Of a stretch of 57,131 nt of DNA, positions 33,784-42,702 are shown one piece after another. A model generated the notes under the pieces. It ran no database searches and was not told where the DNA came from. It saw nothing but the letters and a program-made list of their open reading frames with translations. Each line of letters begins with the position of its first letter. Within the stretch, counting starts at the first letter, position 1. Origin of the DNA: a virus; the IMG/VR virus record IMGVR_UViG_3300010376_000011, positions 1-57,131 of that record. One strand, given 5' to 3'. A program made the translations under genes and the position numbers.

Positions 33784-34677
33784 ATGAAAATCTACTGCGC
33801 CGGAGCCGGAACATTCCCGACGATCACTGAGATGATTGGCGTATTCAGCGGCATTGATGTTTTCAGCAGCTACTTCGACATCAGCCGCCAGCAAGGCAGC
33901 CAAGACATTCTGCCGATGCTGCGCAAGCATGAGCCGCGGTCAGTCGTTTGCGATTCAGGCGCGCACGCTTACTTCTCCGCGATAGGTGGCGCGATCAAGA
34001 GCGCGAGCCCGATCACGCTCGCTGCCAAGCTGCCACCGCCCAAAGAGTATGTCGCAGGCTATGCAGAGTTCATCGTGCGCTCGCTGCATCTTGTCGATGT
34101 GTTCGTCGAGATGGACACAGTGCTCATCCATGGTGAGCGATTCCAGAAATGGCAGCGCGATTGTTTGCTGGAAGCAGTGCGCGGAGATCGCTCGCGCATC
34201 ATGCCGGTCTATCACGCGTGCGAGAAACGAAAGGTCGCGCTCAAGCTGATTGACGAATTCCCGTATGTCGGCATCGAAGGCAAGCGCACGAAGAATCTTT
34301 CGCTCGATGATTACATGCAGATCGTTCACGCTGCCTACAAGAAGAAGTGCAAGGTCCACGCGTTCGCTTCCGTGGACAATGAGTTCCTGACCCGCGTGCC
34401 TTTCTACTCGAGTGATTCATCCAGTTGGAGCATGATTTACCGCAGCGGCGTTTACGTGCAGTTCACAGGGCGCGGCATGACGACGCTGCATCGCTCAGAA
34501 GTGCAGCGGCGATTTCATATCGCGGTCGGCCACGCGCAGTCGCTTGCGAGAGTGACGACAGCGCGCTCGACAGCCTTTCGTTACCGTGCAATGATCCGAA
34601 CTGTAATTGAGCAATATGAGAAGTTTGCGCACTATTTAACAGAGCTATGGAACGCGCGGGGAATAGTCTGGCAGTAG
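33784..34677 (+). CDS. dpdA: DpdA-like DNA-guanine transglycosylase (TGT superfamily)
   Basis: VVCDSGAHAYF, VFVEMD, HAFAS and YSSDSSSWSM motifs as in phage/bacterial DpdA; clustered with folE-queD-queE. Confidence 0.7.
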   Translation: MKIYCAGAGTFPTITEMIGVFSGIDVFSSYFDISRQQGSQDILPMLRKHEPRSVVCDSGAHAYFSAIGGAIKSASPITLAAKLPPPKEYVAGYAEFIVRSLHLVDVFVEMDTVLIHGERFQKWQRDCLLEAVRGDRSRIMPVYHACEKRKVALKLIDEFPYVGIEGKRTKNLSLDDYMQIVHAAYKKKCKVHAFASVDNEFLTRVPFYSSDSSSWSMIYRSGVYVQFTGRGMTTLHRSEVQRRFHIAVGHAQSLARVTTARSTAFRYRAMIRTVIEQYEKFAHYLTELWNARGIVWQ

Positions 34678-35291
34678 GCAATCGGCGTTATCGGATCCTT
34701 CCGCTTGCGCAGATCGTGAAAGCGGACTGGAACTATAAGAAGGAAGACGCTGCGCTGACAAAAAAGCTCGTCGCGAATATCAAGCGCAACGGGCAAGTCG
34801 AGAATGTCCTTGTGCGGCAGTTGAAAGGCGGCCGCTTCGAAATGGTGAACGGCAATCACAGGCACGACGCATTCACTGAGCTCAAGCAGCAGAAAGTCCT
34901 TGTCTGCGATCTTGGCAAGATCAGCAAGGCGGCAGCGATGCGAATCGCGCTTGAGACCAACGAGACAAAATACGAAACGGATTTCGTTCAACTGTCGAAG
35001 CTGCTCAAGGAACTCGGCACAGAGTTCACTGATGACGATCTGCTAGGCACAATGCCGTTCGACTTGCGCGAGCTCCAAGACATTCGCGAGATCACGACCT
35101 TTGAGTGGCCAGAGGGCAGCGGCAAGAAAAGCGCAGGCGGGCAGAGCGCGAACGGCAAAGAGGAAGGAAAGATTCAGATGGTTCTGAACTTCACTTCCAA
35201 AGAGACAAACATCCTCAACGCTTTCTTCACGCGCGCCAACAAGAAGTCTCCCGAAGCTGCAATCATATGGGCAATCCAACACGCGCCATAA
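34647..35291 (+). CDS. ParB N-terminal (ParB/Srx) domain protein, possible DpdB-like partner of DpdA
   Basis: ILPLAQIV..NYKKED..LVANIKRNGQVENVLVRQL..FEMVNGNHRHDAF is the ParBc pattern; overlaps the dpdA 3' end by 31 nt. Confidence 0.7.
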   Translation: MERAGNSLAVGNRRYRILPLAQIVKADWNYKKEDAALTKKLVANIKRNGQVENVLVRQLKGGRFEMVNGNHRHDAFTELKQQKVLVCDLGKISKAAAMRIALETNETKYETDFVQLSKLLKELGTEFTDDDLLGTMPFDLRELQDIREITTFEWPEGSGKKSAGGQSANGKEEGKIQMVLNFTSKETNILNAFFTRANKKSPEAAIIWAIQHAP

Positions 35292-35638
35292 AAGCGAGCA
35301 TCGTCGTTCGCGTCGCGGTGGAAGGTTTTCATCGCTGGCCGAATGCGCCTGACAAGCACGATTACTTGCGCGAGCGACACCGACACCTGTTCGTGATCGA
35401 AGCAGTGAAGCCAGTGACAAGTCTTGATCGCGAAGTCGAGATCATTGAGTTCGGTCGCGAGATTCGACACTTCATCACTCGCAATTCAGGCGCGCCGGCT
35501 GAGTTCGGTCCACTCAGTTGCGAGCAGATTGCAGCGATGCTCGTTCACACGTTTCAGTTGTCGCGCTGCTCGGTGATGGAAGATGGCGAGAACGGAGCTG
35601 AGGTCGTTGTCGATGAAACTGGCCTACCTACCGCTTGA
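35267..35638 (+). CDS. PTPS/QueD-like T-fold protein (divergent paralogue)
   Basis: Internal ATG 35267; VEGFHRWPNAP..RERHRHLFVIEAV..DREVEIIEFGREI..LSCEQIAAML..VMEDGENGAEV parallels the QueD layout, but the CxxxHGH motif is replaced. Confidence 0.45.
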   Translation: MGNPTRAIKASIVVRVAVEGFHRWPNAPDKHDYLRERHRHLFVIEAVKPVTSLDREVEIIEFGREIRHFITRNSGAPAEFGPLSCEQIAAMLVHTFQLSRCSVMEDGENGAEVVVDETGLPTA

Positions 35639-36695
35639 GCCTTATCGCGAGCGTTACACCGAGATGCTTTGCGATTGGACGACTGCGCGCTGGCGTGATC
35701 GGTGCGAAGTGCTCGCGATCTACGCGGGCGATAAGTTCGATGGTGACATTGAGACAGGCGTTGTGCTCGATGCTCATCGCCGCTGCCACTGGGCACTGAC
35801 TCAGATGGCGGCGCTCATCAAAGACTTGAAAGAAGGCGTGAAATATGACGCGATCTACATCGACGATCTTTTTCATCCTGGCTTCGAATCGTTGCCTTAC
35901 ATCTTCGCGCAGCAGAAAGAGCGCGCGCCGAAACTGTTCACGCGCAACTGGGCGCAATCCGTTGACGAAGATGATTTCACTTTTCCAATGCGCAGATGGA
36001 TGAGGCACTACGAAAGATTAGTCGATCAGGTCACGGCAGGAATTTTCTGCGCTTCCACTTGTCATGCTCAAGCGATGCGCATCGCGGGACTCAAAGGCGC
36101 GCAAGTTGTCGGGCTTCCATTCGACAGCGAAGATGTTCGCAGTCGTCGTCGCGGTGCAATCGCGCGCAGCGACAAGCCGCGCGTGATCTTTTCGTCGCGA
36201 TGGGACAAGGAGAAGCAGCCTGACTTCTTCATGCGGGTCGTGCGCGAGTGCGGCGAGCAGTTTGAGTTTCTTGTCTGCACTGGCGCAACGGAGCTCCGCA
36301 GCAATTGGTCTTCGCTGATCGACGATGCTCGCGATCTTGAGCAGGACGGACTGCTGAGGATCCGAACAGGATGCCGCAAGCTGGATTACTACAGCGAGCT
36401 TGCAGGCGCGTCGGTGCAATTCAACTGCGCGCTGCAAGATTACGTCGCATTCACGACACTGGAAGCTTCCGCGTTCGGAGTGCCGACGCTCGCGCCCGCA
36501 TACAAATCCTTTCCAGAAGTTCTGCACAATGATGAGCGGCGCTTATTCGTGCCATGGTCAATCACTGATGCAGTGAGCAAACTGAAAGTGCTCGCTACTA
36601 CCGACGTATTGAATGAATGGGAGATCGCGGCGCCGTCAGTCGAGCATGACAAAACTCTCGACAAGATGTTAGGTTGGATGAAAACGATATGCTGA
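35613..36695 (+). CDS. GT-B fold glycosyltransferase-like protein (GT4-like C-terminal half)
   Basis: Internal ATG 35613; KPRVIFSSRWDKEKQPDFFMRVV..FEFLVCTG..VQFNCALQDYVAFTTLEASAFGVPTLAP resembles the Glycos_transf_1 core (E..fG...lEA...G.P). Confidence 0.6.
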   Translation: MKLAYLPLEPYRERYTEMLCDWTTARWRDRCEVLAIYAGDKFDGDIETGVVLDAHRRCHWALTQMAALIKDLKEGVKYDAIYIDDLFHPGFESLPYIFAQQKERAPKLFTRNWAQSVDEDDFTFPMRRWMRHYERLVDQVTAGIFCASTCHAQAMRIAGLKGAQVVGLPFDSEDVRSRRRGAIARSDKPRVIFSSRWDKEKQPDFFMRVVRECGEQFEFLVCTGATELRSNWSSLIDDARDLEQDGLLRIRTGCRKLDYYSELAGASVQFNCALQDYVAFTTLEASAFGVPTLAPAYKSFPEVLHNDERRLFVPWSITDAVSKLKVLATTDVLNEWEIAAPSVEHDKTLDKMLGWMKTIC

Positions 36696-37132
36696 CCTGC
36701 ACGAAGACTTACATCGACATTCCTTTCGCGCATCGCGCGCACAGACATGATGGACACTGCGCGCTCATTCACGGGCACAATTGGAAATTCGAAATCACCT
36801 TCGCTGCTCCTATCACTGATGAGTGCGGGTTCGTGATGGATTTCGGAAAGCTGCAAAGCTTGAAGGAAGAAATCACTCGCACCTTCGATCACAAGCTTGT
36901 GCTCAATTCCAGTGACCCGCTCGCGCCAGAGCTCGCGCATTTTCTCGTTTCAAAGAAGATCGGCAACACCACGCTTGTGCCTGATTGCTCCTGCGAAGGA
37001 ATCGCGAAGCTGATTTACAAAATGGCTGACCGCATCGCGCGAGAGGAAACACTGGGGCGCGCGCACGTTCAGCGCGTCACCGTATTCGAAGACTCAAAGA
37101 ATCTCGCGACCTATGACGCTCAAGGTGAATGA
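36689..37132 (+). CDS. queD: 6-carboxy-5,6,7,8-tetrahydropterin synthase
   Basis: FAHRAHRHDGHCALIHGHNWKFEITF..GFVMDFGKL..FDHKLVLN..CSCEGIA..VTVFEDS; ATG 36689 (the track starts at TTG 36674). Confidence 0.85.
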   Translation: MLTCTKTYIDIPFAHRAHRHDGHCALIHGHNWKFEITFAAPITDECGFVMDFGKLQSLKEEITRTFDHKLVLNSSDPLAPELAHFLVSKKIGNTTLVPDCSCEGIAKLIYKMADRIAREETLGRAHVQRVTVFEDSKNLATYDAQGE

Positions 37133-37694
37133 AATCTTTTACTCGATTCAGGGCGAAGGCGCGCGCGCGGGACAACCTTCGATCTTCATCCGGCTGAGCG
37201 GGTGCGATCTCACCTGCAACTTTTGCGACACAGAATTTGCGAGCGGCGCAGCGATGGCGCTCGACGCGATCAGAGATCACATCAAGCAGTGGTCATGTCG
37301 CTGGATTGTCTGGACTGGCGGCGAGCCGATGCTGCAACTATGCGATGCAGCGATTGAGTATTTCCGCGAGCTTGGCTACAAGCAGGCCATCGAGAGCAAC
37401 GGCAATCACAAAATACCGCGCGCGATTGACTGGATCGTCGTCAGCCCAAAAGTTGCTGAGCATGTCATGAGAAAAAACTTCCCTGATGGAGTCGATGAAT
37501 TGCGCTACGTAAGGCATTGCGGCCACATGAACGTTCCTGAGCCAGCAGTCGAAGCGCAGCATTACTACCTCTCTCCGATCTTCGACGGCAATACACCTAA
37601 CGAAGCGAACGTCAAGCATTGCCTCAAACTGATACTCGCGAACCCGCAATGGAAACTAAGCCTGCAACTGCACAAGCTCCTGCGCGTTCTGTAA
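37113..37694 (+). CDS. queE: 7-carboxy-7-deazaguanine synthase (radical SAM)
   Basis: [45 protein letters not shown]. Confidence 0.9.
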
Positions 37695-38527
37695 CGTGGC
37701 TTGAGCTCATTGACGAAGTCGATTCGCTTGATCGGCGATGGACCTATTACGGCATCCCGCGCGGCGGCACGATCGTTGCGGGTGTCGCTGCTGCGCGTGG
37801 ATTCAAGATTACTTCGGAGCCGGAGCGCGCTGATATGTTACTCGATGATGTTGTCGATTCAGGAGCGACGCGGAGTAAGTGGCTCGTCAGGTTTCCAGCG
37901 AAAGGATTTCGCGCGCTGTATCAGCGCACCGACAAGTGGCTCGTCTTTCCGTGGGAGAGTTCTTACGCCGCGGCAGCGCAAGAAGTCGTCACGCGGCAAC
38001 TTGAATTGATTGGCGAAGACGCAGCGCGGGAAGGTCTGCGCGATACACCTGAGCGCGTCGTGCGATCATGGCAGGAGCTCTATGCGGGCTACAGGATGAA
38101 GCCGGAAGATGTTTTGAATGCGCACTTCGCGCGCGACGATTACGATCAGATGATTGTCTGTCGCGGCATTCAGTTCTACTCGACCTGCGAGCATCACCTG
38201 CAACCTTTCTTCGGGCGCGCTCATATCGGCTACCTGCCTGACCACTGCGTGGTCGGACTCAGTAAGCTCGCGCGACTCGTTGACGTATTCGCCCGCCGAT
38301 TGCAGATACAGGAACGCCTCACGGAACAGATCGCCGCTGCGCTGCAAACGCACACGCGACCAAAAGGCGTCGGCGTAATCATTGAGGCGCAGCACTTCTG
38401 TATGATGTGTCGCGGCGTGCAGAAACAAACGAGCTCAATGGTGACCAGCGCGCTCAAAGGTTGCTTCCGCGATGCAGCAGTGCGCGCTGAATTTCTGAAC
38501 CTTCTCGCGCAAGGCCAATCAGCTTAG
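37649..38527 (+). CDS. folE: Fusion protein: N-terminal Gpt-like phosphoribosyltransferase domain plus GTP cyclohydrolase I
   Basis: N-terminus [48 protein letters not shown] (Gpt-like); C-terminus [32 protein letters not shown]; ATG 37649 (the track starts at TTG 37619); overlaps queE. Confidence 0.85.
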
Positions 38528-38547
38528 CGTGAAAACACGCTAAGCTG
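38520..38547 (+). terminator. Conserved 28-bp hairpin, copy 4, followed by TTTTCTC
   Basis: Perfect 12-bp stem, AAAA loop; contains the folE stop codon (TAG 38525-38527). Confidence 0.65.
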
Positions 38548-41991: not shown

Positions 41992-42702
41992 ATGCCACAG
42001 AAGGTAATGAAGATACATCCGCTCTGCCGAATGTTCAGTCAGATCGCGCCACTCGGAAAAGACGAGAAGGCCGAAATGGTTGCTGACATTAAGGAGAACG
42101 GAATCAAGGTGCCTCTACTTGTTAACAAGAAGAAGGACACCATCTACGACGGCTATACGCGGTGGGGCATCGCGTATGATCTCAAGCTCGCACCGAAAGA
42201 CATTCCAATGGAAGTCTTTTCGGGCACTGAGGAAGAGATCGAAGCAGAAATCTTGTCCCGCAATCTGTTCCGGCGCCATATGTCGGACAGTGAGCGCGCG
42301 GCACTCGTTTCGAAGATCCTCGGCCCAGTCGCTGAGAAGGAAGCGAAAGAGCGTCAGAGCGCAGCGGGCAGCTTCGGTGACAAGAGCAAAGGCAAGGGCA
42401 CAGGGAAAGGCAAACGGGTTGCTGAGCTCGCGAAGAAGGCGGGCGTCAGTGAGCACAAGATGGCGCAAGCTGAGCGCGCACGTAAGGCCGGAATGATTGA
42501 TGATGTGCTGTCGAAAAAGACCACGCTCCGTAAGGCAAGCGAAAAAGGCAAAGGCGGAAAGCGCAAGCCAGCGAAGGAACTTTCTTTCGCAGATGCGCTC
42601 TACAAGAAGTGGACCGCCTTCGTCAATCGCATTGACCATCCGAAGCGACGCCAAGCATTGGAACTGATCGCTGGCTGGTGCACAGGAAAGAAGCCCGCGT
42701 AA
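41992..42702 (+). CDS. ParB-like nuclease-domain protein with a C-terminal HTH region
   Basis: IHPLCRMF..EMVADIKENGIKVPLLV....IYDGYTRWGIAYDL is the ParBc pattern; AGAAGGAG RBS. Confidence 0.8.
   Translation: MPQKVMKIHPLCRMFSQIAPLGKDEKAEMVADIKENGIKVPLLVNKKKDTIYDGYTRWGIAYDLKLAPKDIPMEVFSGTEEEIEAEILSRNLFRRHMSDSERAALVSKILGPVAEKEAKERQSAAGSFGDKSKGKGTGKGKRVAELAKKAGVSEHKMAQAERARKAGMIDDVLSKKTTLRKASEKGKGGKRKPAKELSFADALYKKWTAFVNRIDHPKRRQALELIAGWCTGKKPA

Follow-up and report, generated by a model that had tools for sequence, protein, structure and literature searches.

The complete viral genome IMGVR_UViG_3300010376_000011 (57,131 bp, with direct terminal repeats and with baseplate and tail genes), referred to here at its full length as the window, carries an open reading frame (ORF) at 37649..38527 that joins two known folds in one protein of 292 amino acids (P0001; stop codon 38525-38527). 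All features discussed lie on the plus strand. An N-terminal minimal type I phosphoribosyltransferase (PRTase) domain, which resembles the xanthine-guanine phosphoribosyltransferase (XGPRT) Gpt, spans aa 1-110 (37649..37978) with a folded core of about aa 12-105, and is followed by a GTP cyclohydrolase I type 1 (FolE) domain at aa 111-292 (37979..38524; PF01227, TIGR00063). An initial annotation of this DNA had proposed a Gpt-like PRTase fused in frame to FolE within a dpdA cluster. This structural reading is right. The strings on which it was based are all found in the translation of the ORF, namely VTW (aa 15-17), IPRGG (aa 36-40), [15 protein letters not shown] (aa 64-78), FPAKGF (aa 82-87) and WLVFPWES (aa 97-104).

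The FolE half is, judged by its sequence, intact. PF01227 was matched at aa 111-286 with an E-value of 6e-71 and 238 bits (cut-off 27), TIGR00063 reached 223.5 bits against a cut-off of 181.6, and Pfam, PHROGs and NCBIfam agree on a complete GTP cyclohydrolase I that begins at aa 108 or 111 and ends at aa 286. This also bears out that about 110 residues precede FolE in the same frame. The zinc and catalytic motif C180-E-H-H183 together with C251 is invariant in 69 full fusions. An AlphaFold2 (AF2) model of full-length P0001 reached a mean local confidence (pLDDT) of 94.4 and a predicted template modelling score (pTM) of 0.84. In this model FolE helix 1 (aa 106-120) follows directly on the PRTase domain, and the junction is predicted with a pLDDT of about 90 over aa 100-110, without a disordered linker.

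For the N-terminal region the evidence came from the family rather than from the single protein. The N-region of P0001 gave no match to Pfam, including PF00156 (gathering score 26.3 bits). Searched alone it matched phrog_8995 of PHROGs, 'phosphoribosyl transferase', weakly (E 0.011), and the xanthine PRTase equivalog NF006613 with an E-value of 0.03 and 13.8 bits, where the cut-off is 138. A phmmer search of the PDB with aa 1-112 yielded E-values of 0.098 or higher, with the archaeal purine PRTases at about 0.6-0.8, which is not significant. Since the single-sequence searches were non-significant, the link to Gpt becomes visible only via a family profile. A word-indexed search identified seven more proteins that share this N-region, with FolE following it in six, and the profile of these eight N-regions, run against 1.8 billion representative proteins, had 3,917 matches at E <= 1e-3, of which 857 reached E <= 1e-10. 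Among the 150 best relatives PF00156 was matched in 49 (E <= 0.01; best 2.4e-8), PF01227 in 56, and phrog_8995 by the N-domains of 125. The Pfam search suggested in the initial annotation remained empty for the N-region of P0001 itself and was positive for a third of these 150 relatives. The profile of the 150 N-domains (A3) aligned end to end with the XGPRTs of E. coli and Yersinia (E 2e-12), and it also matched the purine PRTases of Pyrococcus and Sulfolobus.

Structure prediction led to the same family. The N-domain, modelled by AF2 with the A3 alignment, reached a pLDDT of 90.6 and a pTM of 0.81, and the parallel-sheet alpha/beta core of PRTases is present, as the top matches of both Foldseek and VIA-align are all PRTases. 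The best Foldseek matches in the PDB were exclusively XGPRTs or archaeal 6-oxopurine PRTases, each with a probability of 1.0, and VIA-align gave Z scores of 10.8 for E. coli XGPRT, 10.6 for the Pyrococcus horikoshii PRTase and 10.1 for the Sulfolobus hypoxanthine-guanine-xanthine PRTase (HGXPRT). Weaker neighbours were the hypoxanthine-guanine PRTases (HGPRTs), at about 8 or lower and mostly at about 6.5, and PyrR at about 7. The absence of a PRTase fold in structure prediction, which had been named as one way in which the reading could fail, is therefore not what was found. The best viral match, in BFVD, was a stand-alone 'phosphoribosyl transferase' of Cellulophaga phage phiST, and the neighbours of the domain in the ESM Atlas are almost all viral. 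Taken as sequences, these proteins resemble Gpt far beyond chance, and the resemblance is detectable only at the level of the family. The N-domain probably has its origin among Gpt-type 6-oxopurine PRTases and may well work like them.

The comparison to Gpt held only in part, however. XGPRT is the nearest relative both by profile and by structure, but the domain is not a full Gpt. Compared to XGPRT (PDB 1A95-1A98, 4JLS, 5XTK), which has 152 residues, the same alpha/beta core is reduced to about 100 aa, with strands at aa 12-14, 32-35, 63-69, 86-92 and 97-99 and helices at aa 17-25, 39-49 and 73-81 in the AF2 model, and all solved structural relatives in the VIA-align list are 30-50 residues longer. 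In the HMM alignment the XGPRT stretches 53-69, 79-81, 119 and 122-130 have no counterpart in the family profile. The 17 residues of the first stretch form a strand and the flexible loop II including R69, and residues 122-130 are part of the hood. A short connector (aa 50-62; 37796..37834) takes the place of the loop II hairpin, and the distance from PRGG to DD is about 29-30 residues in P0001 and most relatives, compared to 52 in Gpt. Since neither the equivalog score nor the flexible loop corresponds to Gpt, we file the domain as a Gpt-like minimal PRTase and not as Gpt. It is among the smallest PRT folds we have met, and would be useful for finding out what purpose the loop serves.

What has been kept is the ligand site. 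We determined residue frequencies in the 150 N-domain relatives and the 69 full fusions, and mapped positions onto XGPRT by the HMM alignment. The loop for pyrophosphate (PPi), I36-P-R-G-G40 (37754..37768), has P37-R38-G39-G40 at the place of Gpt S36-R37-G38-G39, with R38 conserved to 91% and G39 and G40 to 98-100%. The motif for phosphoribosyl pyrophosphate (PRPP), M63[11 protein letters not shown]74 (37835..37870), corresponds to Gpt 85-96 and shows the succession of a hydrophobic strand, two acidic residues and a loop of small residues up to G-x-T that is typical of type I PRTases. Its D66-D67 (Gpt D88-D89) are conserved to 98-100%, with one Glu among the 150 sequences, D70 (Gpt D92) to 95-97%, and S71-G72-A-T74 (Gpt T93-G94-G95-T96) to 90-100%, with G72 and T74 at 98-100%. 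In the purine pocket (R93, W97 and F100-P-W-E103; 37925..37957), W97 (Gpt W134) is conserved to 97-100% and F100-P-W-E103 (Gpt Q137-P-W-D140) to 92-100%, while the position of Gpt K115 is Lys in 80-84% and Arg in 6-7%, either of the two in 86-91%, and Arg in P0001. Hence the Gpt positions R37-G-G, D88-D89, D92, T93-G-G-T96, W134 and P138-W139-D/E140 are matched in the domain, K115 is matched by Lys in most of the family, and the residues of a 6-oxopurine site at the Asp92, Lys115, Trp134 and Arg37 positions are present. The conservation of the PRPP-binding loop, for which the initial annotation had suggested a check, is thus near-invariant at the ligand positions. Counted together, the PPi loop, the acidic pair, the Asp of the 6-oxopurine site, the 5'-phosphate loop, the Lys115 position and the stacking Trp reach 80-100%. 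The roles of these elements in Gpt are binding of PPi by the loop, of Mg and ribose by the acidic pair, an Asp facing N7, a Lys binding O6 and a stacking Trp.

The fusion is recurrent. A pattern scan of IMG/VR yielded 261 confirmed relatives, and for the best 80 loci the gene content was determined by iterative searches seeded with the window's own proteins. The domain was fused to FolE in 79 of these 80 loci. DpdA-like genes were found in 72, always within 3 kb, so the same fusion indeed exists in other dpdA phages, as the initial annotation had suggested searching for; where DpdA is missing, the contig is mostly short or the match lies close to its end. QueE was present in 77 loci, QueD in 72, QueC in 56 and a DpdL-like gene in 17, the latter two being mutually exclusive. 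The fusion occurs in QueC-type, Gat-QueC-type and DpdL-type clusters alike. A search for longer proteins identified at least 873 clusters with the domain (E <= 1e-6), and all 120 clusters listed contain FolE, 118 as fusions of about 293-345 aa (most 293-315) and two as intein-bearing proteins of about 590 aa. The source names of these 120 are 'GTP cyclohydrolase I' only, and PF00156 was precomputed for one of them. FolE was matched in 402 of 50,697 phage records, and 32-41 of those, about one in ten, also have the N-domain, always under the sole label 'GTP cyclohydrolase'.

Isolated carriers are Pseudomonas Nipunavirus phages (NP1, PaMx25, JG054 and others), VpKK5-like Vibrio phages and phages of Stenotrophomonas, Xanthomonas, Variovorax and Sphingomonas. 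In PaMx25, VpKK5 and Stenotrophomonas phage ply2008005c the gene order is queE, queC, queD, fusion, dpdA/tgt, clamp and polymerase; the queC of PaMx25 is annotated as glutamine amidotransferase and is probably Gat-QueC. In the PaMx25 record (NC_041953.1 30865-31795) folE is annotated only from a codon inside the gene, and the PRTase domain is covered by a 'hypothetical protein' in another frame, gp38, although the domain is actually in frame with folE. Phages 9g and CAjan share the pathway and the operon logic (FolE, QueD, QueE, with or without QueC, and DpdA), but their FolE is unfused and has no match to the N-domain. The Gat-QueC of 9g demonstrates that the pathway can gain a chemical step when domains are joined.

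Other arrangements of the domain exist. A second FolE architecture, in which the linker measures about 50 aa, was found in P0044, P0090 and P0108. In fusions of 420-590 aa (P0045, P0084, P0115, P0301; loci L025 and L073) an intein interrupts FolE, in some cases with an HNH endonuclease. P0025 and P0158, both on short contigs (L085, L086), carry the domain joined to a C-terminal domain of about 100 aa that is not FolE and has no Pfam match. A protein of 264 aa, P0063, present in two assemblies (L087:1655-2449 and L088:1641-2435) and encoded between queD and a ParB_N gene, combines the mini-PRTase with the C-terminal half of DpdA; as only this half is present and FolE is gone, it looks like a deletion chimera, and the idea of a true PRTase-DpdA fusion was set aside.

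Stand-alone relatives are rarer than the searches suggested. Many matches of 105-170 aa were rejected because they come from short contigs on which a fusion is cut off; P0009, for instance, is 94.7% identical to the N-part of a Nipunavirus FolE. Genuine stand-alone proteins have 125-185 aa, and eight were examined in their context. Six (P0008, P0011, P0168, P0181, P0224 and P0214) are encoded within a few genes of FolE and usually also near QueE, QueC or QueD, P0224 even between queD and queE. One lies on a short contig with a PTPS/QueD-family gene about 1.2 kb upstream. The more distant P0241 stands beside an IMP dehydrogenase/GMP-reductase-family gene, a ribonucleotide reductase (RNR) gene and a deoxynucleoside monophosphate kinase gene, with no FolE within 10 kb. 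Behind FPWE, most stand-alone forms retain a linker of acidic character and then a helix that reads ED-x-[VI]-x-R-[LI]-x-Q-[YF]-x-G, the pattern that FolE helix 1 has in the fusions. This tail could serve in docking on FolE or could stem from a split fusion. Where it occurs, as in P0011, P0026, P0037 and P0168, the separate FolE has a normal length of about 186-219 aa. P0214 (L098:1-4874) is encoded between FolE and a methyltransferase, with carbamoyltransferase-like and MazG-like (PRA-PH) genes further on, and this cluster may represent a different deazapurine tailoring pathway.

The stand-alone PRTase of phiST, CGPG_00045, is a more distant member of the same group. phiST is the phage in which the DNA base 7-deazaguanine (dDG) was discovered. 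CGPG_00045 belongs to phrog_8995, which 125 of the 150 N-domain relatives match, and shares the PRPP motif and the C-terminal W-x-V-F-P-W-E with the fused domain, but it has 142 aa and a longer loop and hood, and its gene is located outside the deazaguanine cluster, 20 kb from folE and near an RNR gene.

The fusion gene of the window most likely starts at ATG 37649. Only this codon and TTG 37619 provide in-frame ATG, GTG or TTG starts ahead of the folded core, and the closest homologue, P0003, which also comprises 292 aa, has the same ME- at its N-terminus. From ATG 37649 the gene overlaps the 3' end of queE by 46 nt (37649..37694) and from TTG 37619 by 76 nt, in agreement with the 46-76 nt initially noted; QueE and the FolE fusion overlap in about half of the related loci. 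No Shine-Dalgarno-like sequence was seen before either start. This means little, as none of the operon's other genes has a clear one either and most of them overlap the adjacent gene. A strong terminator-like hairpin (38520..38547; 12-bp stem with 7 GC pairs, then a T-run) extends over the stop codon and marks the fusion as the final gene of the operon.

Upstream of it, the operon comprises a DpdA-like DNA transglycosylase (33784..34677; phrog_887, E 6e-21), a ParB-like protein between dpdA and dpdL (34647..35291), a QueD-like DpdL homologue (35267..35638; 40% identity, E 2e-24, to phiST CGPG_00067, which is DpdL), a GT-B glycosyltransferase-like gene with weak Glyco_trans_1 matches (35583..36695), queD for 6-carboxytetrahydropterin (CPH4) synthase (36674..37132; PF01242, E 2e-25) and queE for 7-carboxy-7-deazaguanine (CDG) synthase (37113..37694; phrog_2076, E 8e-32). 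The order is thus dpdA-parB-dpdL-GT-queD-queE-fusion. QueC was not found among the larger ORFs of the window. DpdA, FolE, QueD, QueE and DpdL are all present, so the cluster is of the DpdL type. DpdL is a proposed CDG decarboxylase (Cui et al. 2023, PMC10516641), and because a DpdL homologue is present and QueC was not found, the phage is predicted to place 7-deazaguanine in its DNA through DpdA. Relatives of the GT-B gene were detected in eight of the 80 loci, all eight with a DpdL-like gene and without QueC, and this gene could add a further sugar modification to the base or the DNA. A second ParB-like gene of the window is located at 41992-42702. In other loci (L087, L097) ParB_N genes are direct neighbours of DpdA or the PRTase, and the ESM Atlas holds a viral cluster of 277-aa ParB_N proteins, part of which resembles the PRTase domain (TM 0.72), which we regard as a lead only.

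What does the domain do in such an operon? A guanine-recycling loop as suggested by the initial annotation is plausible. We propose that the N-domain salvages or removes guanine in a manner coupled to DpdA, a reading to which we give nearly an even chance. Each exchange by DpdA would use one deazaguanine base, at the cost of one GTP, and free one guanine. The N-domain would bind the freed guanine, with W97 stacking on it, D70 directed toward N7 and R93 at the Lys115 position, and PRPP by R38-G-G, D66-D67 and S71-G-A-T74, and would convert guanine and PRPP to GMP, from which host Gmk and Ndk would restore GTP for FolE. A guanine PRTase activity of the domain is putative. TGT-family enzymes accept guanine as a competing substrate, and removal of free guanine would also keep this competitor from DpdA. 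The fusion to FolE, or the FolE-helix-1-like tail of the stand-alone proteins, would couple salvage to the entry enzyme that consumes GTP, and either may provide a lid in place of the missing flexible loop. The genome contains 31,393 G:C pairs, and for other dpdA phages a replacement of 16-32% of G has been reported; at such a level, we estimate, each copy of the genome would set free guanines by the thousand.

Several observations support this proposal. The near-invariance among the relatives is found exactly at the ligand and catalytic positions of Gpt, and both P0241 and the phiST PRTase are encoded in settings of nucleotide metabolism. Since the fusion occurs irrespective of the final base, its function should lie in a step common to all clusters, which is either GTP supply or guanine release. 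Together with the conserved Asp of the 6-oxopurine site, this independence of the final base makes salvage of guanine the best-fitting explanation. Other observations weigh against it. Flexible loop II of type I PRTases closes over the active site in catalysis, and this loop, including R69, is deleted here together with part of the hood. P0001 itself stays far below the score of the Gpt equivalog, lacks a PF00156 match and carries Arg where Gpt has Lys115. Two kinase reactions separate GMP from the substrate of FolE, so salvage alone explains neither the fusion nor the FolE-helix-like tail, and the conserved residues would be needed equally by a non-catalytic sensor of nucleotides or PRPP. About 90% of phage FolE genes do without the domain, and hosts normally have a Gpt or Hpt of their own. 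A predicted complex of DpdA and the N-domain received a score of 0.00, i.e. 'no answer', which speaks neither for nor against binding.

The N-domain could instead be a non-catalytic pseudo-PRTase that serves as ligand sensor or scaffold, tuning FolE or organising its assembly in response to a guanine nucleotide, PRPP, guanine or (p)ppGpp. We consider this possible but rather unlikely. In its favour, loop II and part of the hood are deleted, the junction is predicted to be rigid, and the acidic linker and helix kept by the stand-alone proteins suggest docking on FolE; physical coupling to FolE is what salvage leaves unexplained, GMP not being a FolE substrate. Moreover, the structural neighbours include PyrR as well as a Gpt-like protein with bound ppGpp (5vog, Z 9.4), and PyrR and PurR illustrate that a type I PRT fold can act wholly or partly as a ligand sensor. 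Those two, however, are unfused regulators of at least about 180 aa that bind nucleic acids, and the phage domain is closer to the 6-oxopurine PRTases than to PyrR. The retention of D70 and of the stacking Trp in 95-100% of the sequences argues for catalysis, although a role in binding could explain it too, and the distant stand-alone proteins are found in nucleotide-metabolism modules without FolE nearby. In addition, we know of no bacterial FolE regulator of the PRT-fold type.

A 7-deazapurine PRTase similar to TubE of the tubercidin or ToyH of the toyocamycin pathway, joining CDG, 7-cyano-7-deazaguanine (preQ0) or 7-deazaguanine to PRPP, appears improbable to us. It would open a route to deazaguanine at the nucleotide level beside DpdA, for incorporation by the polymerase or as an antimetabolite. 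The likeness is one of gene content: TubE is a PRTase specific for CDG, which it joins to PRPP, and is encoded with homologues of FolE, QueD and QueE (PMC6112128), tubercidin-family pathways lack QueC according to a genome-mining preprint of 2026, and the window follows the same logic with FolE, QueD, QueE and a PRTase domain, while QueC was not found. The domain and its stand-alone relatives closely track FolE, QueD and QueE, and the pocket, with hood and loop cut back, might accommodate a 7-substituent. TubE and ToyH, however, are stand-alone proteins of actinomycete antibiotic clusters that contain nucleotide-tailoring genes and no DpdA, whereas the phage domain belongs to a DpdA operon, and no tailoring, kinase or reductase genes for steps after a PRTase were seen in the window. 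With DpdA in 72 of the 80 loci a nucleotide route would be unneeded and would compete for the base, and the co-occurrence of the fusion with three different end products speaks against it. D70 is near-invariant, although 7-deazapurines have no N7, the atom which the equivalent Asp presumably faces in HGPRT and XGPRT. DpdA was reported in all deazaguanine phages (Cui et al. 2023, PMC10516641), which also counts against such a route.

That the 110 codons of the N-region are not translated at all, with FolE starting downstream and the PRTase likeness devoid of functional meaning, might be suspected from the missing Shine-Dalgarno sequence and from the internal folE start in the PaMx25 record, but it has next to no chance of being true and is rejected, as is chance resemblance, on account of conservation: in at least 873 clusters the invariant motif residues are kept at the protein level in frame with FolE, in PaMx25 the domain precedes the annotated folE start in the same frame, TTG 37619 and ATG 37649 are the sole in-frame starts ahead of the folded core, and the lack of a Shine-Dalgarno sequence and the overlaps are shared by the rest of the operon. 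The second way in which the initial annotation could have failed, a true start downstream that yields FolE without the domain, has the same conservation in hundreds of fusions and the shared ME- of P0003 against it.

The pathway is currently described as consisting of FolE, QueD, QueE, QueC or DpdL, tailoring enzymes and DpdA, and the conserved extra domain has gone unannotated. A PRTase in phage deazaguanine systems is not mentioned in the literature covered, which comprises Hutinet 2019, Cui 2023, the iggy paper and what full-text searches retrieved but not Iyer et al. 2013 (PMC3763556). As a handful of database entries carry PF00156 and PF01227 together, the architecture was visible in principle. 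Two known folds thus form a recurrent, unannotated fusion within a well-studied pathway.

If the N-domain salvages or removes guanine, it would supply a missing step of bookkeeping in this pathway, with one guanine out for each GTP in, and would be a lever on the efficiency of modification and hence on how well the phage evades restriction. With a sensor or a deazapurine PRTase instead, the pathway would have an unsuspected control point or branch. In the latter case many dpdA phages would run a second, nucleotide-level deazaguanine route alongside the post-replicative exchange of bases, and the deazaguanine nucleotides could be incorporated at replication or could poison the nucleotide metabolism of the host. 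Culturable carriers such as NP1, PaMx25, VpKK5 and the Stenotrophomonas phages make the function of the domain directly testable.

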